A DNA stretch of 64,000 nucleotides, taken from an uncultured Chloroflexia bacterium. Its GTDB lineage: Bacteria; Chloroflexota; Limnocylindria; Limnocylindrales; CSP1-4. Made by a program: the position numbers and the translations under genes. Shown here in pieces: positions 13,135 to 53,207 of this stretch. A model generated the notes under the pieces. It ran no database searches. It had not been told where the DNA came from and saw nothing but the letters and a program-made list of their open reading frames with translations. Location of the stretch: NCBI GenBank assembly GCA_963720965.1, contig CAVRHD010000001.1, positions 19,703 to 83,702 on the forward strand. Reading direction: 5' to 3'. Within the stretch, counting starts at the first letter, position 1. Each line of letters starts with the position of its first letter.

Positions 13135-14808
13135 GTGTCCTTCGATCATCTTGGGCTTGCGCCCGAGCTTGTCCGCGTCGTCGCGGACCAGGGCTACACC
13201 GAGCCCACCCCCGTCCAGGCCGAGGCCATCCCGCTCGTGCTGGCCGGCCGCGACGTCCTTGCCGGCGCCCAGACCGGGACCGGCAAGACGGCCGCCTTCG
13301 TCCTGCCGATCCTGCAGCTGCTCAACGCAGACCGCCCGGCCACGCCCGCCACGCCGGCCTCCCAGCCACGCTCGGCCCAGGGGCTGCCGACGTACATCCC
13401 AACCAGCCGGGATCGGCGCAATGCCACGCCGGTCCGAATCCGGACGCTGGTCCTTGCCCCGACCCGGGAGCTGGCCCTCCAGGTCGAGGAGAGCGTCCGG
13501 ACGTACGGCGCCCGCCGTCCGATCCGCTCGACGACGATCTACGGCGGCGTCGGCTTCGACCCGCAGGTCCGCGCCCTGCGCTCCGGGCCCGAGATCGTGG
13601 TGGCGACCCCGGGACGGCTGCTCGACCACCTCGGCCAGGGCACGATCGATCTCGGCCACGTCGAGATCCTCGTCCTCGACGAGGCCGACCGGCTCCTCGA
13701 CATGGGCTTCATCCGGGATATCCGCAAGATCATCGGCGCGCTCCCCCGCGAGCGCCAGACCCTGCTGTTCTCGGCCACCTTCTCCGACGACGTCCGACGA
13801 CTGGCCGCCGACATCCTGCGCGATCCGGCCATGGTCCAGGTCGCCCGCCGAAATACCGCCGCGGAGCTCGTCCGCCAGCTCGTCCTGCCGGTCGATCGCG
13901 AGCGCAAGCGTGAGCTCCTGGCCCACCTCGTGAAGTCGGGCCGAATCGACCAGGCCCTCGTCTTCGCCCGGACCAAGCACGGTGCCAACCGGCTGGCCGA
14001 GCAGCTCGAGCGGGACGGCATCATCGCCACCGCCATCCACGGCAACAAGAGCCAGCCCCAGCGGATCCGGGCGCTCAACGACTTCAAGTCCGGCCGGGTC
14101 GCGATCCTCGTAGCCACCGACCTGGCCGCGCGCGGGATCGACATCGACGCCCTGCCCCACGTCGTCAACTTCGAGCTGCCGATGGTCGCCGAGGACTACG
14201 TCCATCGGATCGGCCGGACCGGCCGGGCCGGAGTGGAAGGGGACGCGATCTCGCTCGTGTGCGTCGACGAGAACAAGATGCTGCGCGACATCGAGCAGGT
14301 CCTTGGCCACCGGATTCCGACCGAGACCATCCCCGGCTTCGAGCCCGACCGGACGATCCGGCCCGAACCGATCCGGCTGCGCAGCCAGGGGATCCAGCCG
14401 GGCGGCCGGCCCGGGCGGGGTTTCGCCCCGGCCCGGCGCAGCACACCCCTGCCGGCGAACCGACCGCTCCATCCCGGCCAGGCGGCCCAGTCGGGCGGCG
14501 GCCGGCCGCACGACGGCCAGGCCCATCGGCCGAGCCGCGACGGCATGACCCGGCCGAACGGCGCCCCGGCCGGCCGCCCGGCTGGATCGCCGATGGCGCG
14601 ACCCCAGCTGCCCGCTCGCGGAGCTCGGCCGCAGGGTGGACGGCCCCAGGCTGGTCGGCCGCAGCCAGGCCGGCCCCAGGGCGCACCGCTCGGTCAACAC
14701 CACCCGTCCCACGGCCACTCGCCGAACGGCAATCGTGGCAACGGCCAGATCAATGCCCTGCCCGGTGAGACGTTCCGGCGGAACGCCGCTCCAGGCCGCT
14801 CGTCGTAG
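13135..14808 (+). CDS. DEAD-box RNA helicase (RhlE-like) with long disordered C-terminus
   Basis: Q motif, [43 protein letters not shown]. Confidence 0.95.
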
Positions 14809-23993: not shown

Positions 23994-25280
23994 CTAGCGA
24001 CCGGGCAGGACAGCCCGCCACAGCTCGGGGAAGGCCCTGGCCACGACGCCCACCCCGACCAGGCAGAGCAGGCCGCCGGACACGACCGAGAACTGGGCGC
24101 CAAAGATCGCGGCCACCCCGGTCGCCTCGAGGTCGCCCAGGCGCGGCCCGCTCGTGACGACCAGCAGGTGGATCGAGGTGACCCGCCCGCGCAGCTCATC
24201 GGGGGTCCCCAGCTGGAGGATCGTCGAGCGGAAGACCGCCGACAGGACATCGGCGGCCCCGGCGATCGCGATGAGCAGGAGGGCCAGTGGGAACGAGAAC
24301 GTGGCCAGGCCGAAGCCGGTGATCGCCAGGCCCCACACGATCACGGCCAGGATCACCGCCCGCCCGACCCGCCGGACGCTCGACACCCAGCCGGACAGGA
24401 GGGCGCCGAAGAACGCGCCAACCCCCGGCGCGGCGGCCAGCAGGCCGAAGCCGACCGGCCCAACCTTGAACACGTCGAGGGCCAGGACCGGGAAGAGCGC
24501 CGTGGGCATCCCAAAGATCATGGCCACGAGGTCGATCGCAAAGGTCGACAGGATGACCCGGTGCTGCCGCGCGAACCGGAGGCCCTCGACGATCGCGTCG
24601 ATCCCGGGCCGGGCGACCTGGCCGATCGGCGGCAGCGGGCCGATCACGGTCAGGGCGACGAGCGACGCTCCGAAGCTGACGACGTCGACGGCATAGGCGC
24701 CGGCCACGCCGACCGTGGCCAGGAGCAGACCGCCGACGGCCGGCCCGACGATCGAAGCCGCCTGGAAGCTGAGCTGGTTCAGTGCAATCGCCGCCGGCAG
24801 GCGGGCCGGGGTCACCAGCCGGGGCACGGCGGCCGCCCGAGTCGGAGCATCGACCGCGCCGATTCCGGCGGCGGCGAAGGCCACGACGTAGATCGCCAGC
24901 AGGGACGGCGAGGGAACGACGGCGAGGACCACCAGGAGCAGGCTCATCGAGGCCGACCCGATCTGGGTCACGACCAGGATCCTGCGCCGGTCGACGGCGT
25001 CGGCCACCGTCCCTGCACCGAGCGAGAAGAGCAGGATCGGGATGAGCTGGACGAGGACGAGTCCGCCAATCGCCAGGGTCGATCCGGTCAGGACGAACAC
25101 CTGGTAGGGCAGGACGATCCTGGTGATCTGGCTGCCCATCCCCGAGATGAGCTGGCCCAGCCACAGCGCCCGGAACTGGCGGTGGTAGCGAAGCGGGGCC
25201 GTGTCGAGGAAGAGGCCCCGCACGCGACCGCGGCGAGGTGCGGCCGGAGGTTCGACCGGCGCGGTCGCGGGGCTGGTCAC
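23994..25280 (-). CDS. MFS transporter (EntS/DHA3-like)
   Basis: FRALWLGQLIS, G.VADAVDRRR, GPAVGGLL, PDELRGRV; about 12 TM segments. Confidence 0.9.
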   Translation of the reverse strand: MTSPATAPVEPPAAPRRGRVRGLFLDTAPLRYHRQFRALWLGQLISGMGSQITRIVLPYQVFVLTGSTLAIGGLVLVQLIPILLFSLGAGTVADAVDRRRILVVTQIGSASMSLLLVVLAVVPSPSLLAIYVVAFAAAGIGAVDAPTRAAAVPRLVTPARLPAAIALNQLSFQAASIVGPAVGGLLLATVGVAGAYAVDVVSFGASLVALTVIGPLPPIGQVARPGIDAIVEGLRFARQHRVILSTFAIDLVAMIFGMPTALFPVLALDVFKVGPVGFGLLAAAPGVGAFFGALLSGWVSSVRRVGRAVILAVIVWGLAITGFGLATFSFPLALLLIAIAGAADVLSAVFRSTILQLGTPDELRGRVTSIHLLVVTSGPRLGDLEATGVAAIFGAQFSVVSGGLLCLVGVGVVARAFPELWRAVLPGR

Positions 25281-25324
25281 CGAGCCGGTCTGGGACCTGT
25301 TGTCGAGACGGGCGACTCGTTCGT

Positions 25325-28123
25325 CTAGCGATCCCGTTCGGCGGCCGAGGCGAGAGTCGCCTGGGCGGCCGCGAGGCGGGCCACGGGCACCCGGAATGGT
25401 GAGCAGGACACGTAGTCCAGGCCGATCCGCTCGCACTTCGCGATCGATTCCGGATCGCCGCCGTGCTCGCCGCAGATCCCCAGCTCGATGTCCGGCCGGG
25501 TGGCCCGGCCCTTGTCGACGGCGATCTTCATCAGCCCGACCGACGGCGTCATCCAGGGTCTGGAACGGATTGGCCGGCAGGATGTGGTCCTCGACGTACT
25601 TCAGCAGGAAGCCACCTTCGGCGTCGTCCCGGCTGTAGCCGAAGGTCATCTGGGTCAGGTCGTTCGTGCCGAAGCTGAAGAATGCCGCGTCGGTCGCGAT
25701 CTGGTCGGCGGTCAGCGCGCCGCGGGGGACCTCGATCATCGTGCCGAACTTGTAGTCGAGGGCGACGCCGGCCGCGCCGGCGACGGCGCGTGCCTCGGTC
25801 TCCAGGATCTGCTTCGTCGCCGAAAGCTCGTTCACGTGGCCGACAAGCGGGATCATGATCTTGGCGATCGGGTGACCGCCGGCCTTGGTGACCGCGATCT
25901 GGGCGTTCAGGATCGCCCGGGTCTGGATCTTCACGAAGTCCGGGATCATCAGGCCCAGCCGGCAGCCACGCAGGCCGAGCATCGGGTTCTGCTCGCGCAT
26001 CGATTCGACCACCGCCAGGACCTCGCGCGCCCGGCTGTAGGCGGGATCGTCCTCGGGCGTGCCTCGCTCGCGCAGCTCGGTCACCTCGACCAGCAGGTCG
26101 TCGTGGTTGGGCAGGAACTCGTGGAGGGGCGGGTCGATCAGCCGAACGACCACCGGCAGGCCGTCCATGGCCCGGAAGATCCCTTCGAAATCACCCTGCT
26201 GCAGCCGCTCCAGGCGAGCCATCGCCGAGTCGAACCGCTCGACGATCGCGCGCTCGTCGGGATCGAGCTCCTCGCCGGCGTCGCGCCGGGCCTTGGCCCG
26301 GGTGGCGGCATTGGCCACGAGAATCGCGCCGCGCACGATCTCGAGGCGCTCGCCCTCGCGGAACATGTGCTCGGTCCGGCACAAGCCGATCCCCTGGGCG
26401 CCGTACGAGCGGGCCAGGGCGGCCTCCTCGGGCTTGTCGGCGTTGGTCCACACCCCCATCCGGCGTATGCCGTCGGCCCAGCCCAGGATGGTCCGCAGGT
26501 CGGGCTGGTCCTCGAAGCGGGCCGAGACGGTGGGCATGGCGCCGAGGAAGACCTCGCCGGTCGAACCGTCGACGCTGAGCCAGTCGCCCTCGGCGAAGGC
26601 CAGCCCCGATTCGATGCTGCGGGCGGTCCGCGCGCCGTAGTCGATGACGAGCTCGGCACAGCCGGCCACGCACGGCTTGCCGATCTGGCGGGCAACGACC
26701 GCGGCATGGGAGGTCGCCCCGCCGCGGGCGGTCAGGATGCCCTGGGCGACGGCCATGCCGTGGAAGTCGTCGGGCGAGGTCTCGATCCGCACGAGGACGA
26801 CGCGTTCACCGCGACCGACCCAGGCGACGGCGTCGTCGGCCGACGAAGACGGCCCGGCCGACGGCCGCGCCGGGCGAGGCGTTCAGGCCGCGAGCGATCC
26901 GGGTTGCCGACTGGCGCGCGGCCGGGTCGTACTGGTCGCGCAGGAGCTGGTCGATCTGGGCCGGCTCGATCCGCCCGACCGCCTCCTCCTTGGTGATGAC
27001 GCCCTCGCCTACCATGTCGGCCGCGATCTTGACGGCCGCGGCGGCGGTCCGCTTCGCGCTGCGGGTCTGGAGCATGAACAGGTGGCCGCGCTCGATCGTG
27101 AACTCGAGGTCCTGGACGTCGCGATAGTGGCGCTCGAGGCGCTCCGCGATCCGCTGGAACTCGGCGTAGGCCTGGGGCAGGTCGCGCTCGAGGTTGCTGA
27201 TCTTGTGAGGCGTCCGGATCCCGGCCACGACATCCTCGCCCTGGGCGTTGGTCAGGTACTCGCCGTACAGCACCTTCTCGCCGGTGTTCGGGTCGCGGGT
27301 GAACGCGACCCCGGTGCCCGAGTCGTCGCCCATGTTGCCGAAGACCATCGTCACGATGTTCACGGCCGTGCCCAGGTCATGGCGGATCTTGCTGATTCTC
27401 GCGGTAGTCGTGGGCGCGCTTGCCGAACCACGACGCGAAGACCGCCTTCGATGGCCAGGTCGAGCTGGTCGAACGGGTCGCTCGGGAAGTCGCGGCCGGT
27501 GTCGGCCTTGACGATCGCCTTGAACGCCTCGCTCACGTGCTGGAGGGCCGCCGCGTCGAGGTCGGTGTCCTGCTTGGCGCCGTGGATCGACTTGGCGTGC
27601 GTCGAGGGCCTCGTCGAACTTCTCGGCATCGACGCCCATCACGATCCGGCCGAACATCTGGATGAACCGGCGGTAGGCATCCCAGCCGAAGCGCTCGTTG
27701 CCGGTCAGCGCGATCAGGCCGTGCAGCGTGTGCTCGTTCAGGCCCAGGTTGAGGACCGTGTCCATCATCCCCGGCATCGAGAACTTCGCGCCGGAGCGGA
27801 CGCGAGACGAGGAGCGGATTGGCCGGATCGCCGAAGCCCTTGCCGGTCTGCCGCTCGACATCGCGGACCGCCTCGAGGACGTCCTGCCACAGCCCGTCGG
27901 GGAGCTTCTCGCCGGCCGCGAAGTAGTCGTTGCAGGCCTCGGTCGTGATCGTGAAGCCGGGCGGCACCGGCAGGCCCGCGTTGGTCATCTCGGCCAGGCC
28001 GGCGCCCTTGCCGCCGAGCAGGTCTCGCATCGCCGCGCTGCCCTCGGCCCGGCCGCCGCCCCAGGCGTAGATGTAGCGCTTGGCGGCAACGTGGGAGCGC
28101 TCGCTCGTGGCAGTCTCGGTCAT
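25325..28123 (-). CDS. ppdK: Pyruvate, phosphate dikinase (several frameshifts)
   Basis: [93 protein letters not shown]. Confidence 0.95.
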
Positions 28124-28283
28124 CGGGGGTGGGGCTCCTTCGATTTGACGCTCGGGGCCGGACAGGATGTGTTCGTCCGATTGTACCCGTGGGCCTCGCC
28201 GACCCTCGGTTGTGGATCGGTTAGGAGGGTCCGGGGAGCGGCTGGCGGCCTCAGCCGCGGGCGCAGTGCTGCGCTCCTGCCCT

Positions 28284-28474
28284 CGATATCACTGCCATTT
28301 CTAGCGAACCAGCTCCGCGGACCCAGGCGACCCCCTCACGCCCGGTGCGGCGCTCAGCCCAACGAACGCTGAGCACGAAGTGACTGGTCGGGCCACCTGC
28401 CGTCTGGGCCTGGGTTGCCCCGGTGAAGGCCTCGGTGCCAGAAACCCGGTCTCCTAAGAATGGCCGTTATATCG
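28284..28474. repeat. ~190-bp palindromic element, copy 1 (MITE/REPIN-like)
   Basis: Imperfect terminal inverted repeats cgatatcactgccatttctag (28284-28304) and ctaagaatggccgttatatcg (28454-28474); central cgctgagcacgaa at 28367. Confidence 0.65.
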
Positions 28475-28513
28475 GATGGATCAGCCCTGTCGCCTGCGAC
28501 TATCCTGGCTCGC

Positions 28514-29420
28514 GTGAGCCTCGACGCACAGGTTCGTCTCCACGCCTTCGGGTGGCTCCGCGACCGAATCTCGGAGCACGGCGAAGTCCTGCCCCGCGCG
28601 ATGCTCGCCGAGGGTTTCATCTTCGAAGGTGATCGCGTGGCCCTGCTCGGTCCTCAGGGGATCTTCAAGCCACGCCTGTGCGAGCTACCACTGTCAATCA
28701 CGACCTCGCCGAACGGGCCGTACAAGGACATCGCGGGCGACAACGGACTCATCGAATACCGCTATCGGGGCGTCGACCCGGCGCACCCGGACAATGTTGG
28801 ACTGCGAAGGGCGATAGCCGCCCAGACGCCGCTGGTTTACTTCGTCGGCATCGAGCCGGGTCGCTATGCCGCCGTCCTGCCAGCCTTCATTGTCGGCGAT
28901 GACATCAATGCCCTGACATTCACCGTACAGGCCGACGACCTCGATTTGACCCTGATTGGACGCGAACCGAGGGTCGCCGTGGCTGATGATCCCGGTGACG
29001 CGCGCCGGCGGTACATCACGACGACCGTCCAGCGACGTCTCCACCAGGCGGCCTTCCGCGAGCGAGTCCTGCGCGCCTACACAGGCGCCTGCGCCCTGTG
29101 TCACTTGCGTCATGCCGAGCTGCTCGATGCAGCTCACATCGACGAGGATTCGAGCGAGCTCGGCGAGCCGCTCATCTCGAATGGGCTCGCGATGTGCAAG
29201 CTTCACCATGCTGCCTTCGACAGCGACCTGCTCACGGTCCGTCCCGACTACCGAGTCGAGAATTCGACCGTCGATCATGGGCGAGTCTGACGGTCCCATG
29301 TTGGTTGTCGGCCTGCAGCAGGTTCAGGGCCAGCTGATCGGACTGCCCCGCCGGTCATCCGAGCGACCCGATCCGGTCCGCTTGGAACGCCGCTACGAAC
29401 GGTTCATCCGAGCGTCGTAG
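28514..29420 (+). CDS. HNH endonuclease with SRA-like N-terminal domain (putative modification-dependent restriction enzyme); frameshift near 29260
   Basis: PY.D...IEYRYRG..P.HPDNVGLRRA; RRLHQAAFRERVLRAY...CALC...LDAAHI...NGLAMCKLHHAAFD; C-terminus continues in another frame (DGPML..GLQ...RYERF). TATCCT 7 nt before GTG. Confidence 0.85.
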
Positions 29421-29434
29421 CCGGCGGCCCAACG

Positions 29435-29728
29435 TCAGGCGACCAGGCCGACGTATGGTCTTCGGTCATGGCCTTGACCTCGATCGTGTGACCGCTCACA
29501 TCCGCCGCCGTGGCAAGTTGACTCCAATTCCTGCAGGCCCTGGGAGATCGCATCCTCGTCGCTGACCGCATCCATATCGAAGGACACGCGCAGCACGCTC
29601 AGTGCGTCAGGCTCAATCCCAACGCATGCCTCGGGGTCATTTGGACGAAACGCGGCATCCAGACGCTGCAGGGTCGGCTCGTCAATGGAGAGACCGTGAT
29701 CCCACCGGCCATAGATCGCGTACTCCAT
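29435..29728 (-). CDS. Small acidic hypothetical protein (possible 3' frameshift)
   Basis: TATAGT 6 nt before ATG; MEYAIYGRWD...LRVSFDMDAVSDEDAISQG. Confidence 0.55.
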   Translation of the reverse strand: MEYAIYGRWDHGLSIDEPTLQRLDAAFRPNDPEACVGIEPDALSVLRVSFDMDAVSDEDAISQGLQELESTCHGGGCERSHDRGQGHDRRPYVGLVA

Positions 29729-29806
29729 CGGGCGACTATAGGTGGCGCTCGGAAGACAAGATCTCAGCAGCCCAAGCAGTTGGCAGCTGAACGGCGGTCG
29801 GGGCGA

Positions 29807-29993
29807 AATATCACCACAATTCGTAGCTTGCGTGCTGGCCGCTGTGAAACGGGTGTTTGAGCCACGTCGAGGTGTGCAGAGCTCGGCCGCTGAGCACGAA
29901 ATCTGCTCAGCGGACCCGCCGAGAACCGGGATTCTCCCGGCCGAACCCGACTTCTCGCACCGCTAACGGTTAGCTAGCAATAGTGGTGATATT
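29807..29993. repeat. ~187-bp palindromic element, copy 2
   Basis: aatatcaccacaattcgtagc (29807-29827) and gctagcaatagtggtgatatt (29973-29993) match 18/21 as inverted repeats; central perfect stem ccgctgagca-N7-tgctcagcgg at 29887-29913. Confidence 0.7.
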
Positions 29994-30095
29994 GGTGCCA
30001 TCGACGAGGTGAGCCCGGGGCGGCTCACGCTCGACCGAGTTGTCAGACGCCCGGCCGCGCCGGGCAGGGCCCGAGCCACGGCCCTTGACGAAGGG

Positions 30096-30932
30096 TCACT
30101 CGTCTTCGTTGACGCTCGGATCGATGCCCTCGGCGGCGGCCAGCTTGGGCTCCTTGCCCTTGGGCCAGTAGAGCTCTTTGCGGATCGACTCCTCGGCAAA
30201 GCCGAGCGACTGGAATGTCGCGTCGGCGTTCAGGATCATGTCGGGGTTGCCGCAGATGTAGGCAATCGCGTTGTCCGGGGTCAGCTCGAACTCGCGGCAG
30301 ACGTCCTCGAGGATCGCTTCGACCCGGCCCGTCCGGGCGGTCCAGCCGGCGTTGCGCGGATCGGCCGTCCGCGAGACGGTCGGAATGTACGTCACGGGGA
30401 ACCCGCCCGAGCGCTGCCAGCCCTCTACCAGGCTGCGGTAGCCCAGCTCCTCCTGGTAGGACACGCCGTTCAGGAACAGGGCCCGGCGTGGCGCGCCATC
30501 GATGATCAGGGTCCGAATCATCGACACGAATGGGGCGTTGCCCGTGCCCGACGAGATGAACAGGTGGCTCCGGTCGTCTCCGGGCTGAAGGGTGAACTTG
30601 CCCTTCGGCCCGATCAGGCGCATCCGGTGCCCGATCGGCAGCTCCCACAGCAAGGGCGTGAACTGGCCACCCTCGACCAGCCGGACGTACATCTCGTAGC
30701 CGTCGGCGGCCGTCCGCGGCGACGACGCCACCGAGTACGGACGCTGGACCATCCGGCCGCCGGCGATCACTCCGATCGTCATGTACTGGCCCGGCTCGAA
30801 CGCGAGTGGCTCGCCGTCCAGCCGGACGGTGAAGTAGCCGAGGCTGCTGGTCTCGTCCGTGCGAGCGACCAGGGTCGCGTTGTACTGGGGTGCGTCCGTC
30901 TCGACCAGGCGGACCTCGCTGGGCTCGAGCAT
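30096..30932 (-). CDS. Ferredoxin/flavodoxin-NADP reductase (Fpr-like)
   Basis: FEPGQY, RPYSVASSP, GQFTPLL, GPKGKF, SGTGNAPF, YICGNPDMI, ELYW. Confidence 0.9.
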   Translation of the reverse strand: MLEPSEVRLVETDAPQYNATLVARTDETSSLGYFTVRLDGEPLAFEPGQYMTIGVIAGGRMVQRPYSVASSPRTAADGYEMYVRLVEGGQFTPLLWELPIGHRMRLIGPKGKFTLQPGDDRSHLFISSGTGNAPFVSMIRTLIIDGAPRRALFLNGVSYQEELGYRSLVEGWQRSGGFPVTYIPTVSRTADPRNAGWTARTGRVEAILEDVCREFELTPDNAIAYICGNPDMILNADATFQSLGFAEESIRKELYWPKGKEPKLAAAEGIDPSVNEDE

Positions 30933-31033
30933 CAGCCGCCCGCCGCCGTCGTGAACAGCCACACGCCGAGGAGGATCCCGGCGAGCACGGCCACGACGGT
31001 CGCCCCGAGCAACCAGGCCGGCCGGATGCTCAT
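30932..31033 (-). CDS. 33-aa single-pass membrane peptide
   Basis: MSIRPAWLLGATVVAVLAGILLGVWLFTTAAGG*; ATGA overlap with the upstream gene and TGATG overlap with the reductase. Confidence 0.6.
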   Translation of the reverse strand: MSIRPAWLLGATVVAVLAGILLGVWLFTTAAGG

Positions 31034-44713: not shown

Positions 44714-46301
44714 CGAGGCCCGGCCAGAGGGCGGCCTGCCAGGCTCCGAGGAGGGCCCGCCGGCGATCGAGCCGGTCAGGCAGGTGGAGGGGCACGTCGC
44801 GCAGGTCCACGAGGAGGCCGCCGAGGCCGCCGCCGACCTCGACCCGGGCATGCCGGACGCGCGCGCCGAGGTCGACCTGATCGCGAAAGCGGAACTCTGC
44901 GATCCCCAGCTGGCCGGGGGGCAGGTCGACGAGCTGCAGGCCGCCGGGTACCAGGTCGATCTCGCTCGACGATGCTTCGGCGTGGACGATCAGGTGGCCG
45001 GCGGTCTTGCCGGACCTCAGGCCGGCCGGCGTGACGACCGTCCCGAGCGGCACCAGGAGGTCCTCGGCCAGCTCGGCCAGGAGCGCCCGGCGCTCGGACG
45101 GGTCGGCGATCATCCCGATCGGCCCTAGCAGGCGGGCATGATCCCAGGCCAGCTGGCTGGCTCCCGGCCGCCGGACCAGATCGGCCAGGGCCAGGGCGAT
45201 GGCCGGTCCCGGAGAGACCGCCCAGCCGCCCCCGGCGACGACGATGAGGTCGGGTGCCGGCAGCCGGCCGATGTCGGGCGTCAGCCTGACGAGTCGTTCC
45301 AGGGCAGCCCGGGCGGCGGCATAGCGGACGACGGCTCCAGCACCATGCGCCTCGCCCCATGGCGTCAGGCGCAGCTCCCGCAGCCGGTCGCGCATGCGAT
45401 GGCGATCGAACGGGATCGACGACCAGGCGAGGACGCCGTCGACGAGCCCGTCCTCGGGTTCGCCCGGCGGCACGAGGGCAGCATCCGCCACGACGGCCGG
45501 CGGAGCCTCGAGACCGTCGGGACCGGCCAGCACGCGCAGTCCCCCGTTGAATCCGATCTCAACCAGCTCGACCCGCCGCTCGATCACGGCGGCCAGGTCG
45601 ACGACTGCCCGGACCAGGCCGTAGCGCCCGTCGCCGGATGACGGCTGGACGGCATCGAGCAGACGGCGCAGTCCGGATCCGGCCGGATCGCCGGCGGTCG
45701 CGGCCGGTCCGTACGGTGGTGGCGTGCCTTCCGCGTCAAGGACAAAGCGACTGGCCTCGTCCCGGACGAGGCCGGCCAGCACGACCGGACGGCCCGGATC
45801 TCGGCCGGCGATGGCAGCGCCCAGCGTGGCCAGCGACGTCACGCTGGCCTTTGGATCGAGAGCCGGGGATTCGCCCGCCGCGATCACGATCGCGGCCACG
45901 TCCCGCTCGAGGGCCAGTCCGGCCATGTCGATCGGATCCGCCCGCTCGAGGCTCAGCCCGGTTGCCCGCCAGCCACTCGTGTCGGCCAGGCGCTGGAGGG
46001 CGGCTCGTTCGCGCTCGCTGGTCGCCAGGATGGCGAGGCGCGGCAGCTCGGCCGTCCGGGCGACCAGCCGGGCCGGGGTGGTGATCGTGGCTCCAGCAAC
46101 GCGCAGCTCGGCCGCCAGGTCCGGGTCGGTCCCGGCCAGCCGGTCGACCAGGCGTCCCAGGAGCGCCTCGACATCGGCCCCGGCCGGGGCCGATTCGGCC
46201 GCGAGCAAGCGCCGGCGACCATTGATCCGACCGATCAGGGCGACCGCCGAGGTTGCCGACCCGAGGTCGAGCGCGAAAGAGGCTCGCGGGTCGCTCGTCA
46301 C
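44706..46301 (-). CDS. Glutamate mutase L (GlmL/MutL)-like actin-fold protein
   Basis: N-terminal ALDLGSATS..ALI....G..RL; DLIVVAGG; ALALAD...P; C-terminal GGLGGLLVDLRDVPL; family assignment by recall. Confidence 0.65.
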   Translation of the reverse strand: MTSDPRASFALDLGSATSAVALIGRINGRRRLLAAESAPAGADVEALLGRLVDRLAGTDPDLAAELRVAGATITTPARLVARTAELPRLAILATSERERAALQRLADTSGWRATGLSLERADPIDMAGLALERDVAAIVIAAGESPALDPKASVTSLATLGAAIAGRDPGRPVVLAGLVRDEASRFVLDAEGTPPPYGPAATAGDPAGSGLRRLLDAVQPSSGDGRYGLVRAVVDLAAVIERRVELVEIGFNGGLRVLAGPDGLEAPPAVVADAALVPPGEPEDGLVDGVLAWSSIPFDRHRMRDRLRELRLTPWGEAHGAGAVVRYAAARAALERLVRLTPDIGRLPAPDLIVVAGGGWAVSPGPAIALALADLVRRPGASQLAWDHARLLGPIGMIADPSERRALLAELAEDLLVPLGTVVTPAGLRSGKTAGHLIVHAEASSSEIDLVPGGLQLVDLPPGQLGIAEFRFRDQVDLGARVRHARVEVGGGLGGLLVDLRDVPLHLPDRLDRRRALLGAWQAALWPGLDV

Positions 46302-46347
46302 CTGCCCATGCTACCCGGCCGGGCGCCGGCCGGGGCCGGCGGGAACC

Positions 46348-49988: not shown

Positions 49989-51818
49989 CTACTCGACCGT
50001 GACCGACTTGGCCAGGTTGCGCGGCTGGTCGACATCCGTCCCGCGGGCGACGGCGGTGTAATAGGCGAACAGCTGGAGCGGGATGACCGCCAGGATCGGG
50101 CTGAGCACTTCGTCCGTATCGGGCACCCAGCAGACCTCGTCGGCAAAGCGCTCGATCTGGGGGTCGCCCTCGGTCGCCACGGCGATCACCCGGGCGTCGC
50201 GGGCCCGGCCCTCCATGACGTTGCTGATCAGCTTGTCGTAGACCGACGAACGGGTCGCGACGGCGACCAGCGGACACTCCGCGTCGAGGAGCGAGATGGG
50301 GCCGTGCTTGAGCTCGCCGGCGGCATAGCCTTCGGCGTGGACATAGCTGACCTCCTTGAGCTTGAGCGCCCCTTCGAGGGCCGCCGGATAGCCGAAGCCC
50401 CGGCCCACGAACATGAACCCGCGCGAGTTCACGTAGCGCCGGGCGAGGGCCGCCGCGCCGGTGTTGAGGTCGAGCGTCCGCTGGGCGGCCTCGGGCAGCC
50501 CGCGCAGGGCCCGGCCGAGGGCGACCTCGCGCTCGACCGCCAGGCTGCCCCGGACCCGGGCGATCGCCGCGGCCAGGATGACCAGCGTCGTGACCTGGGT
50601 CACGAACGTCTTCGAGGCGGCCACCGCGACCTCCGGGCCGGCCTGCAGGAACAGGACGGCGTCGGCCTCCCGGGTGATCGCCGACCCGACGGTGTTGGTC
50701 ACGGCGATGACGGGGCAGCCCCGTTGCCGGGCCAGCCGGGTCGGGGCAATCGTGTCGGCGGTCTCGCCCGACTGGGTGACCGCGATCACGAGCGTATCGG
50801 CGTCCAGCGGGGGCGGGCTGTAGCGGAACTCCGAGCCCACGGTCGCCCGGGCGGGCAGGCCCGTCCACTCCTGGAGCGCCGCCGCCCCGATCAGGGCAGC
50901 GTAGAAGGCAGTTCCGCAGGCAACCAGCTCGATTCGCCGGACCCGGGCGAGGACCGGATCCAGGCCGGCCAGCTCGTCGACCACGATCCGGTCGTCGCGG
51001 GTCAACCGGCCGGTGATCGACTGGAGCAGCGCGGCCGGCTGCTCGTGGATCTCCTTGAGCATGAAATGGTCGAAGCCGCCCTTCTCCGCCGCCTCCGCCG
51101 TCCAGGTGATCGTGGTCACGCTGCGGCTGATGGGCTCGCCGGCCACGTTGGTGATCTCGACGCCCGACGGATGGAGGTCGGCAACATCGCCTTCCTCGAG
51201 GAAGACGACCTGGTCGGTGTGGGCCAGGATCGCCGCCACGTCGCTGGCCAGGAACGTCTCGCCGGGCGCCAGGCCCACGACCAGGGGCACGTTCTGGCGG
51301 GCCCCGATGAGTCGATCCGGCTCACCCCGGTGCATCACGGCCAGGGCGTAGGCACCCTCGATCCGGCGCAGGGCCGAGCGGGTCGCCGCGGCGATGTCGC
51401 CCTCGTAGGCCTCCTCGATCAGGTGGGCGATCGCCTCGGTGTCGGTCTCCGAGGTGAGCACGTGGCCGCGGCTCTCGAGGCCATCGCGCAGCTCCCGGAA
51501 GTTCTCGATGATCCCGTTATGGATGACCGTGACATTGCCGGTGCAATCCTGGTGGGGATGGGCGTTCAGGTCGTTGGGCCGCCCGTGGGTTGCCCAGCGG
51601 GTATGGGCCAGGCCAATCGCGGCATGGGGCGTGCGGTCGGCGATCGCGGTCTGGAGATTGGCCAGCTTGCCGGCCCGCTTCTCCACGAACAGCACACCCT
51701 GATCGTCGACCAGGGCAATCCCGGCCGAATCGTAGCCGCGGTACTCGAGGCGCTTGAGGCCCTCGATCAGGATGGGCCCGGCCTCGCGCGGTCCGGTATA
51801 GCCGACGATTCCGCACAT
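49989..51818 (-). CDS. glmS: Glutamine--fructose-6-phosphate transaminase
   Basis: MCGIVG, EYRGYDSAG, HTRWATHG, QSGETADT, ELKHGP, PRNLAKSVTVE. Confidence 0.97.
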   Translation of the reverse strand: MCGIVGYTGPREAGPILIEGLKRLEYRGYDSAGIALVDDQGVLFVEKRAGKLANLQTAIADRTPHAAIGLAHTRWATHGRPNDLNAHPHQDCTGNVTVIHNGIIENFRELRDGLESRGHVLTSETDTEAIAHLIEEAYEGDIAAATRSALRRIEGAYALAVMHRGEPDRLIGARQNVPLVVGLAPGETFLASDVAAILAHTDQVVFLEEGDVADLHPSGVEITNVAGEPISRSVTTITWTAEAAEKGGFDHFMLKEIHEQPAALLQSITGRLTRDDRIVVDELAGLDPVLARVRRIELVACGTAFYAALIGAAALQEWTGLPARATVGSEFRYSPPPLDADTLVIAVTQSGETADTIAPTRLARQRGCPVIAVTNTVGSAITREADAVLFLQAGPEVAVAASKTFVTQVTTLVILAAAIARVRGSLAVEREVALGRALRGLPEAAQRTLDLNTGAAALARRYVNSRGFMFVGRGFGYPAALEGALKLKEVSYVHAEGYAAGELKHGPISLLDAECPLVAVATRSSVYDKLISNVMEGRARDARVIAVATEGDPQIERFADEVCWVPDTDEVLSPILAVIPLQLFAYYTAVARGTDVDQPRNLAKSVTVE

Positions 51819-51875
51819 GTTGGTCGCTCTCCGTCGCGCTTGTGGGCCCCGGTTCCGACCGGCGCCGGAGCCGGG

Positions 51876-53207
51876 CTAGTGTAGACGCTCGCCGGCGAGG
51901 GTCACGATCGAGTCGGCCAGCTCGCGGACGAGGCCCGCATCCGGGCCCTCGACCATGACCCGCAGGACCGGCTCGGTGCCCGAAGGTCGGACGAGGACCC
52001 GGCCGCCGGAGCCGAGCCGTTGCTCGGCCTCGACGATGGCTCGGTGCAGGACCGGGTCGCCTTGCCACTGGTCCTTGTGACGAACGCGGACGGCTCGTTG
52101 CTCCTGCGGAAACAGGGGAATCTCGGCGGCCAGCTCATCGACCGTCCGGCCGGTCCGGACGAGCACTCCGAGCAGTTCGAGCCCGGTCACCAGGCCGTCG
52201 CCGGATGAGCTGTGGTCCAGGCTGATGACATGACCGCTCTTCTCGCCACCGAGGTTGGCGTCGTTGATCAGCATCCCCTCGAGGATGTACTTGTCGCCGA
52301 CGGGCGTCCGGACAACCTGCCCGCCGACCTGGCCCAGGGCTGCCTCGAGCCCGCCGTTGGACAGGACCGTGACCACCACGATCCCGTGGCGCAGCGCTCC
52401 GCGCCGGAGCCGGTCGAGGGCGATCAGGCCGATCAGCTTGTCGCCGTCGACGACCTCGCCGTGGCGGTCGACCACGACCAGCCGGTCGGCGTCACCGTCG
52501 AGCGCGAAGCCAAGGTCGGCCCCGCGCTCGATCACGGCTCGAGCCAGTGCGGCCGGAGCCGTCGCCCCACAGTCGACGTTGATGTTGACCCCGTCGGGCT
52601 CGTTGTTGATCACGTCGACCGCGGCGCCGGTCGCGGCCAATACCCCCGGCGCCGACACGCCCCCGGCGCCATTGGCGCAATCGAGGACGATCCGGAGCCG
52701 GGTCTGAATCGTTCCGGCCAGGGCCACGCGGTTCAGCCTGTAGCGCTCGAGCAGGTCGGCCGAACCGCTCACCCGGCCGATCCCGGCGTTGCGGGGCCCG
52801 ACCAGCTCCTCGGCCCGCCAGATCAGGGCCTCGAGGGCATCCTCGCGATCGTCGTCGAGCTTCATGCCCCGCGCGTCGAGGACCTTCAGGCCGTTGTCGT
52901 CGGCGGGATTGTGGGACGCCGAAACCATGATTCCGGCACCGAAGTCGCCGCTCCCGGCGATGAACGCAAGGGCCGGCGTCGGCAGCGTGCCGGCCAGCTG
53001 GACATCGGCGCCCAGGCTGGCCGCCCCGGCCGCGATCGCCTGCACGAACATGCCCCCCGATCGGCGAGTGTCCTGGCCCACCACCAGGACGCCGCTCGGA
53101 CCGAGCAGCTCATGGGCGGTGGCCCGGCCGAGGGCGAAAGCGAGGGTCGGCTTGAGATCCACGTTGGCCACCCCCCGGATGCCATCCGTCCCGAACAGCC
53201 GGGCCAC
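51876..53207 (-). CDS. glmM: Phosphoglucosamine mutase
   Basis: LFGTDGIRG, SASHNP, DGDADR, GGEKSGH, RPSGTEP. Confidence 0.96.
   Translation of the reverse strand: MARLFGTDGIRGVANVDLKPTLAFALGRATAHELLGPSGVLVVGQDTRRSGGMFVQAIAAGAASLGADVQLAGTLPTPALAFIAGSGDFGAGIMVSASHNPADDNGLKVLDARGMKLDDDREDALEALIWRAEELVGPRNAGIGRVSGSADLLERYRLNRVALAGTIQTRLRIVLDCANGAGGVSAPGVLAATGAAVDVINNEPDGVNINVDCGATAPAALARAVIERGADLGFALDGDADRLVVVDRHGEVVDGDKLIGLIALDRLRRGALRHGIVVVTVLSNGGLEAALGQVGGQVVRTPVGDKYILEGMLINDANLGGEKSGHVISLDHSSSGDGLVTGLELLGVLVRTGRTVDELAAEIPLFPQEQRAVRVRHKDQWQGDPVLHRAIVEAEQRLGSGGRVLVRPSGTEPVLRVMVEGPDAGLVRELADSIVTLAGERLH

Follow-up and report, generated by a model that had tools for sequence, protein, structure and literature searches.

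Short palindromic elements with helically phased lengths form a genus-restricted intergenic superfamily in Candidatus Limnocylindrales

Within a stretch of 64,000 nucleotides from a metagenome-assembled genome of Candidatus Limnocylindrales (the window, meaning this whole stretch), two palindromic elements of nearly 190 bp stand on either side of an HNH nuclease gene and a small open reading frame (ORF), in the spacer between ppdK and fpr. Such an arrangement invites the question whether the two elements, here called 1 and 2, are sites that capture and shuttle defence genes, as a sequence-only reading of the window had proposed, or whether the cassette just lies between two copies of a repeat that has to be explained in another way. 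The genome under study (G000; a soil lineage, 3.1 Mb in 9 contigs, 77% complete) was compared with its congeners (G002–G015 etc.; 16 genomes of the genus with G000 included), and elements 1 and 2 are ordinary members of an undescribed, genus-restricted superfamily of short palindromic intergenic elements. The literature, subscription journals not covered, yielded no report of such repeats in Ca. Limnocylindrales or of helical phasing in bacterial miniature inverted-repeat transposable elements (MITEs), and nothing was found in print on mobile DNA of this lineage.

Element 1 is 189 bp long (28285..28473, no strand assigned), with arms at 28285–28306 and 28452–28473 and the central motif CGCTGAGCACGAA at 28367–28379. 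Element 2 is 187 bp long (29807..29993, likewise unstranded), with arms at 29807–29828 and 29972–29993 and its centre at 29888–29900. Both belong to what is called family A below. The bounds first proposed for element 1 (28284–28474, with terminal repeats of about 21 bp) describe a real structure and needed only the slight correction given here, to arms of about 22 bp. The other structural statements of the sequence-only reading stand. Element 1's left arm and element 2's right arm match at 80% across 25 nt, where 19/25 had been noted; the 22-nt arms of element 2 are 86% complementary, and those of element 1, read inward, agree at 16 of 22 positions. CGCTGAGCACGAA is identical in the two elements, at offsets of 82 and 81 from the element starts and on the same strand, the elements being in direct orientation, and in element 2 it lies in a hairpin with a perfect 10-bp stem and a 7-nt loop at the midpoint. 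Outside the arms and this 13-mer no similarity between the two interiors was detected by BLAST, in agreement with the claim that spacing rather than sequence is conserved. The core pattern of the arms has four matches in the window against 0.48 expected, a number that none of 100 shuffles reached.

How common such elements are was determined with a 22-nt position weight matrix (PWM) made from family-A arms taken by coordinate, with reversed genomes or reversed patterns as controls for the arm searches. At a cut-off of 18 bits, G000 contains 36 sites and the reversed genome none; the sites form 20 inverted pairs 103–216 bp apart (19 without one nested pair), again with none in the control. Searching with the arms by nhmmer recovered fewer family-A arms than the PWM, and an ungapped inverted-repeat finder (39 hits; Markov control, 12) lacked the sensitivity needed for a census. 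A search in G000 for inverted repeats with arms 130–240 bp apart revealed three further families, of which C has arms that begin with TGACAAATTCGCGC, D has arms that begin with TGACAAATCGTTC and E has arms that end with GAACACCAAA; a fourth type, with terminal hairpins, occupies the ppdK–fpr spacer of G007, G010 and G012. The merged catalogue of G000 holds at least 75 elements (A 18, C/D 50, E 7), or about one per 40 kb. Members of the superfamily are non-coding and 157–217 bp long, with arms of 22–45 bp. Copies of C/D share the centre of elements 1 and 2, GAGCACGAA(A)TC or its complement, and most other family-A copies have at that place a third, arm-like motif instead, of which the PWM scores three.

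The copies are dispersed between genes. All except one of the 75 elements are intergenic, that is, outside ORFs supported by codon-position GC content (GC at third positions), and they occupy 36 tandem, 22 convergent and 12 divergent spacers against a background of 348, 116 and 124, so that convergent spacers are mildly enriched (22/70 copies vs 116/588). Thirteen other family-A copies have unrelated housekeeping genes as immediate neighbours, among them thrS, msrA, kdpD, dnaK and genes for an ABC ATPase, aldehyde and acyl-CoA dehydrogenases, and GNAT and NUDIX proteins. Of 67 pairs of neighbouring elements, twelve fall within 3 kb, against 5.7 ± 2.2 expected; six of the twelve are tandem copies without a gene between them and six enclose genes.

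Beyond G000, the arm pattern of family A was found, as inverted pairs 160–205 bp apart, in 12 of 15 congeners. It was absent from nine genomes of the family's other genera and from 16 genomes of the sister family, and the reversed pattern was absent everywhere. The claim of an undescribed repeat family with conserved spacing is thereby borne out (18–19 family-A pairs in G000 against none in the control), and the possibility that no further copies with conserved spacing exist falls away. Family C is distributed more narrowly still: its arms number 57 in G000, 21 in G003, 12 in G009 and 7 in G004, with none in the other 12 congeners and only background levels in 60 genomes of other genera. When metagenomes were scanned with a 21-nt pattern of family-C arms, 44 loci of GC content 0.45–0.67 were obtained, and not one had an inverted partner at a distance of about 180 bp; L166 and L175, which were inspected, lie in long coding ORFs, whose likeness to murE and aspS was judged by eye only.

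The lengths of the elements are quantised. Those of 41 C/D copies are periodic with a Rayleigh R of 0.85 at 10.4 bp, as high as in none of 2000 random sets, and fall into clusters at 157–158, 167–171, 178–180, 187–190 and 197–200 bp. For the 18 family-A copies of G000, R is 0.63 at 10.3 bp (p=0.011); 36 further copies from relatives (34 pairs out of 40 fetched sites and two from other loci) give an R of 0.72 when taken alone, and the combined set of 54 copies from 13 species has an R of 0.68 at 10.5 bp, a value reached by none of 3000 random sets, with clusters at 164, 174–176, 185–187, 195, 205–206 and 216–217 bp. The steps are also found within the elements: a centre can be recognised in 31 of the 41 C/D copies, and in these the two arm-to-centre distances are about 70/81/92/102 and 76/87/98/108/120 bp. 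Since this period is the helical repeat of B-DNA and holds for three sites at once, it points to a complex on double-stranded DNA that needs the three sites to lie on the same side of the helix.

We therefore favour, with a probability of about 0.5, the explanation that the elements are genus-restricted dispersed repeats whose three-site, helically phased architecture is looped by a protein complex, and that they are mobile in trans. Every copy consists of three working parts, namely two family-specific inverted arms and, between them, a short motif at the centre, which reads GAGCACGAA[A]TC in C/D as well as in elements 1 and 2. The connecting DNA can vary in sequence, but its length is held to whole helical turns. 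Acting as double-stranded DNA, an element would be bound at arms and centre on one helix face by a complex that loops the spacers of about 80 bp, as a small transpososome or excision complex might do. The enzyme, supplied in trans now or in the past, would fall outside the transposase and recombinase families that were searched; copies would spread into permissive intergenic spacers, and only those with intact arms, centre and right phase would leave descendants or be retained. Short dispersed repeats are usually classed as decayed transposons or repetitive extragenic palindromes (REPs). In this genus nature has in effect performed a helical-twist experiment with more than 100 copies in 13 species, in which nothing has been kept except the ends, the centre and the count of helical turns. 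This leads to a direct, testable prediction, namely that in this uncultured soil lineage a nucleoprotein complex holds the elements in a loop, and arms and centre provide handles to find the protein.

The interiors conform to this picture of free sequence. Copies of one family resemble each other in their arms (mean 0.67–0.71), and the identity between interiors is close to that of shuffles (0.587 vs 0.565 for C/D, 0.569 vs 0.551 for A); the shuffled maximum is surpassed by only 8 of the 820 pairs in C/D and 4 of the 153 in family A. Interiors are not palindromic (z about 0.3), and their own folding is no better than that of shuffles (minimum free energy z −0.25). Complete elements fold better, with a mean z of −3.4 over the 75 copies that is due to the arms alone. 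Folding of the single strands, which had been suggested as a check, gave an end-to-end structure for both window elements, with z −4.4 as RNA and −5.4 as DNA for element 2 and z −1.9 for element 1. In the G009 orthologue of element 1, moreover, five substitutions are shared by both arms. Folding and co-varying arm pairs are what one would expect of structured RNA genes or cis-elements with pairing 5′ and 3′ ends; nevertheless, the interior adds no structure, no Rfam match was obtained between 27500 and 30800 of the window at E up to 1, and a simple scan of 28100–30150, elements included, returned no promoter and no terminator. Neither the 10.5-bp length period nor the phase-locked half-lengths has a rationale in RNA, and an RNA function is in our opinion hardly credible.

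Constraint on the three parts can be observed directly in resident copies. Six species have a copy of 186–188 bp in the ppdK–fpr spacer; pairwise, these copies are 76% identical over the arms, 81% over the centre and 54% over the interior, and TGAGCACGAAA is invariant in all six (element 2 and its counterparts in 5 other species). Only the copies of G000, G003 and G009 are clearly orthologous throughout; the remaining ones, which share the length class, may have arrived independently. In the spacer between the acyl-CoA and aldehyde dehydrogenase genes, family-A copies with one and the same layout are present in G000, G002, G003 and G009. Similar-sized palindromic elements with wholly different arms occur in this spacer in G011, G010 and G006 (L034, L038, L041), which could reflect independent arrivals at a hotspot or replacement of arms in place.

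Arms and centre that are kept while the interior drifts suggest another explanation, in which the chromosome has domesticated the elements as architectural or regulatory sites, comparable to the BIME-1/RIP elements of Escherichia coli or to Correia elements; a DNA-bending protein of the host would occupy the centre, and a host dimer the arms. Copies would be retained as useful, for supercoiling, insulation or the ends of transcripts, and would spread by rare duplication and gene conversion. Both resident sets of copies fit such a role, as do the locking of both half-lengths in phase with the centre, the sharing of centre and architecture by different arm families, the mild preference for convergent genes and the presence of 75 copies in G000 without a transposase of the three large families searched. 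There is also a precedent in the Correia element, for which an inverted repeat, a conserved core and binding of integration host factor (IHF) are described (PMC2649163). On the other hand, the arms are lineage-specific (family C in 4 of 16 species, family A in none of 25 genomes of other genera), many orthologous spacers are empty in relatives with no sign of harm, copies occur in every spacer class, including the 12 divergent ones, and no candidate binding protein has emerged so far. Domestication is thus a serious proposal that we nonetheless consider somewhat unlikely.

Comparison of orthologous spacers shows insertion polymorphism. At the PIG-L/PGA_cap spacer an element is present in G000 and G009 only, out of 11 genomes in which both flanks were found; the spacer measures 7–64 bp in eight species and carries an unrelated insert of 267 bp in one. 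Copy E1 on contig C5 (8031–8223) has, along its entire length, 72% identity with a G009 copy that lies in a different context, the genes flanking the latter being elsewhere in G000.

The explanation by looping and mobility in trans also has to accommodate a number of observations that weigh against it. Indel boundaries, where readable, lie 25–60 nt outside the arms and not at the arms. Direct repeats of 2–9 bp at offsets of −6 to +7 were not above background for 18 family-A and 41 C/D copies, with the restriction that in family A a TA or ATAT duplication is indistinguishable from the palindromic ATAT terminus; the statement in the sequence-only reading that there is no clear target duplication can thus be extended to any offset examined, and its statement that no mobilising enzyme lies nearby holds as well. 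Y1_Tnp/RAYT proteins (PF01797) were found in none of the 16 genomes of the genus, with 6 of 14 reference genomes positive as control, and rve, DDE_Tnp_1 and DDE_3, the transposase families that were searched in G000 and G003, gave nothing, other families not having been included. Eleven insertion sequence (IS) loci inspected in G009, G004 and G007 were devoid of arms of families A–E. The incompleteness of G000 (77%) limits these negative enzyme searches. Unrelated interiors, which differ from ordinary MITE bursts, and the confinement of family C to 4 of 16 species are together difficult to explain by simple copy-and-paste movement. The two arms of one copy are also more alike than arms of different copies (16.44 vs 15.54 of 22 positions; within-species permutation, p=0.0001), and 5 of 24 terminal pairs have changed on both sides among the six ppdK–fpr copies. 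A single protein reading every arm does not account for such co-variation, which may stem from subfamily descent, from quasi-palindrome correction between arms or from a hairpin or cruciform stage. Finally, constraint on arms and centre in resident copies is not predicted by selfish decay and fits a host function better.

As to recombinases, no serine recombinase of the Resolvase family was detected in G000, G003, G004 or G007, and the only tyrosine recombinases of G000 are two Xer-like Phage_integrase genes (three matches, one gene being split), both conserved in all five genomes searched. These results bear on the idea that the elements are invertons, with arms as recombinase sites, a promoter or enhancer at the centre and phasing imposed by assembly of an invertasome. 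Inverted arms around a segment of about 165–215 bp with a conserved internal motif would suit this idea, and length periodicity is expected for short inversion substrates as well; helical-repeat dependence has reportedly been studied with the Hin invertasome. Besides the recombinase results, however, the orientation of the centre is constant in all ten resident copies that can be compared (6/6 in the ppdK–fpr spacer, 4/4 in the acyl-CoA dehydrogenase spacer), the simple scan found no promoter-like site in elements 1 or 2, and 22 of 70 copies lie between convergent genes. Inversion is therefore a very improbable function.

The original question, whether the elements capture cargo, can be addressed at the ppdK–fpr spacer itself. 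This spacer is bordered on the left by the 5′ part of ppdK (27533..28123, minus strand; PPDK_N, PEP-utilizers and PEP-utilizers_C in three ORFs, the gene being split in the assembly) and on the right by the gene of an fpr-type FAD/NAD(P) oxidoreductase (30096..30962, minus strand). Between elements 1 and 2 lie the gene of a restriction-type HNH_2 nuclease (28514..29420, plus strand) and, convergent with it, a 97-amino-acid ORF, ORF97 (29435..29728, minus strand). Two convergent, less GC-rich genes had been reported here and are confirmed, the GC content being 0.61–0.66 against 0.68–0.74 in the flanks. Spacer length varies widely over the genus: 72 bp in G004, where the site is empty, 285 bp in G003, which has element 2 only, 326 bp in G007, 385 bp in G010, 748 bp in G002, 920 bp in G015, 1176 bp in G012, 1795 bp in G009 and 1873 bp in G000. 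The G009 spacer contains element 1, an intact HNH gene, a small ORF and element 2, and G002, G012 and G015 have a different ORF of 135 amino acids instead of HNH. The locus is thus not invariant, an empty site and other cargo both being on record.

In a capture system of the attC or pdif type, recombination of a circular cassette copy with a chromosomal copy would insert cargo between two direct copies of the site. The direct orientation of elements 1 and 2 and the identical strand of their central motif are compatible with this, and so are the absence of element 1, HNH and ORF97 as a block from G003, the empty site of G004, the different small genes carried by the spacer in different species, the clustering of copies and the circumstance that the two recombinases of G000 are Xer-like. 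A second block, formed by E1, a DUF2461 gene and element E2, is likewise missing in its entirety in G009 and G012, with 63 and 30 bp between the genes on either side; E0, E1 and E2 are related copies in direct orientation, and G000 has no second DUF2461 copy. This block speaks for capture. Evidence on the other side comes from locus L136, where two 158-bp family-D copies surround one gene in G000 only and the enclosed gene is in place in G015, G012 and G002, in spacers of 45–107 bp without elements. At the HNH locus, the indel that adds the nuclease includes element 1 and not element 2, and it ends outside the arms. In G005, an HNH gene (72% identical) and the small ORF adjoin ppdK without a family-A arm in the 3.9 kb examined, and C-terminal remnants of HNH, of 66 residues in G014 and 36 in G013, indicate vertical decay at one locus. 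HNH relatives at 41–56% identity in four other phyla are accompanied neither by the small ORF nor by such elements (0/4 loci), and same-spacer copies all have the same orientation and place. No contigs from public runs (Logan contigs, not raw reads) join across either element and no circles were seen, although rare forms are not visible in contigs.

These observations, together with the solitary position of most copies beside housekeeping genes and the small proportion of neighbour pairs that enclose genes (6/67), speak against a dedicated system for the capture of defence cargo. We consider recombination or capture sites a doubtful explanation of the superfamily: capture is not what the family as a whole does, and it might at most have occurred for individual blocks. 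The presence of two copies around HNH follows from element density and clustering and is no evidence of dedicated capture, so that the bracketing of the cassette is most likely incidental; at about one element per 40 kb, bracketing alone is poor evidence of this kind in general. To all appearance the cassette is an accessory module of some age that resides in a fast-changing spacer and is decaying there, being lost in several lineages rather than shuttled. A more far-reaching form of the looping explanation can be imagined, in which a DNA-looping machine outside the families searched reads arms and centre in helical register, both spreads and constrains the elements, co-evolves with the arm families within the genus, and has moved or lost the element–gene–element blocks (HNH with ORF97, DUF2461). 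The superfamily would then represent a new bacterial mobility or chromosome-architecture system instead of a decayed MITE family; we regard this as speculative and, taken as a whole, unlikely.

It is useful to compare the elements with described systems. Correia elements (CREE/NEMIS) of Neisseria, bacterial MITEs, have terminal inverted repeats of about 26 bp and a TA duplication. They resemble the present elements in being short, non-coding and intergenic, with terminal inverted repeats, a conserved core and presence or absence at given sites. Dispersal of Correia copies between genes, and their presence or absence between strains, are documented in PMC2649163. In contrast, the present elements have no detectable target duplication, unrelated interiors, several arm families with one architecture and helically quantised lengths, and an IHF-type site was not identified. 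Likeness to MITEs in general is accordingly divided: terminal inverted repeats, small size, lack of coding capacity, copy number and insertion polymorphism agree, whereas a target duplication, full-length likeness to a master copy and an IS with the same ends were not found.

The BIME-1/RIP elements of Escherichia coli consist of two inverted REPs around an IHF site. REPs, bacterial interspersed mosaic elements (BIMEs) and REPINs are also dispersed, lineage-specific, intergenic palindromic repeats that occur in tandem clusters and keep their complementarity. The differences are that the arms described here are not themselves hairpins and are 160–215 bp apart rather than a few tens of bases, that each copy has a unique interior, and that none of the 16 genus genomes has a Y1/RAYT protein. 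Sites of the attC type and Xer-dependent pdif sites are imperfect inverted repeats around small accessory genes, with structure and spacing conserved instead of sequence. Here neither an integron integrase nor cassette arrays are present, most copies have no cargo, and attC or dif sites are exceeded three- to sevenfold in length. The elements are closest to Correia-type MITEs and BIME/RIP elements, yet fail several defining tests of each.

A parallel for the periodic lengths exists in Paramecium, whose internal eliminated sequences (IESs) have only their ends conserved, decaying interiors and sizes with a period of about 10 bp, read as DNA looping in a transpososome-like excision complex (PMC3464196). 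IESs are eukaryotic, single-copy, excised by a domesticated PiggyBac transposase and selected for precise excision, whereas the present elements are bacterial, occur as intergenic copies and have a third, central site conserved.

Some further details concern the HNH cassette. The nuclease matches Pfam HNH_2 and the HNH model of PADLOC, and a model for phosphorothioate-dependent restriction nucleases below its cut-off; no relative was found in the PDB by sequence, and ORF97 belongs to no family in Pfam, NCBIfam or PADLOC. The intact G009 orthologue has 301 amino acids and a GTG start, and judged from this sequence the true start in G000 is most likely the GTG at 28514, so that the gene does not overlap element 1. 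A coding role of the arm motif, as a conserved leaderless N-terminus (M-x-V-I), was considered and dismissed: in G009 the intact gene has its start beyond the element, on the downstream side, and the motif is present in both outward-facing arms irrespective of which gene is adjacent. The HNH frame in G000 is interrupted by one extra base near 29261, which is missing from contigs of three public runs (X1, X2 and X3, from two studies). The assembly has likewise split ppdK, dnaK, DUF58 and other genes: ppdK extends over at least three ORFs (23994–28123, minus strand), its C-terminal part continuing into an MFS transporter ORF, and MoxR, a class-V aminotransferase, dnaK and DUF58 are truncated or split as well (L004:4356–5303, L067:8227–9402). 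This suggests frequent single-base indel errors of assembly rather than pseudogenes, and because the base is missing in public contigs and other genes are split, the HNH frameshift is read as an assembly error or strain variant. The Logan contigs contain one replaced-segment joint, from 29369 to 29714 with 33 other letters (likeness 85), which is probably from another organism. HNH and ORF97 have their stops about 15 bp apart in G000 (29418–29440) and overlapping in G009 (L013:2418–2423). A homologue of ORF97 stands beside HNH in G009 and in G005, and with the pair recurring in the latter the two proteins may work together. The 135-amino-acid ORF was taken by eye for a PIN toxin, an assignment that was dropped for want of a Pfam match; in G002 (L020:771–1178), and in the same spacer of G012 and G015, it lies to the right of the element, HNH of G000 being on the element's other side, and G015 seems to have a second, decayed copy of it.

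A few local arrangements may be added. Two more inverted-repeat pairs were picked up in the window by the ungapped scan, at 14391–14588 and 46175–46338 (198 and 164 bp apart), one with GC-rich arms of 27 nt and the other with arms of 17 nt; they have not been assigned to a family. Contig C2 of G000 has a head-to-tail array of three elements at 928798–929613 (E, unclassified, C), and contig C3 has three family-C copies at 51550–52369 that are 71 and 179 bp apart. The densest cluster in G000 consists of nine family-C elements in 32 kb of contig C5 (6498–37778; L066, L067), in surroundings with adenylate/guanylate cyclase–AAA_16–TPR genes, a MoxR–DUF58–VWA set and small accessory genes.

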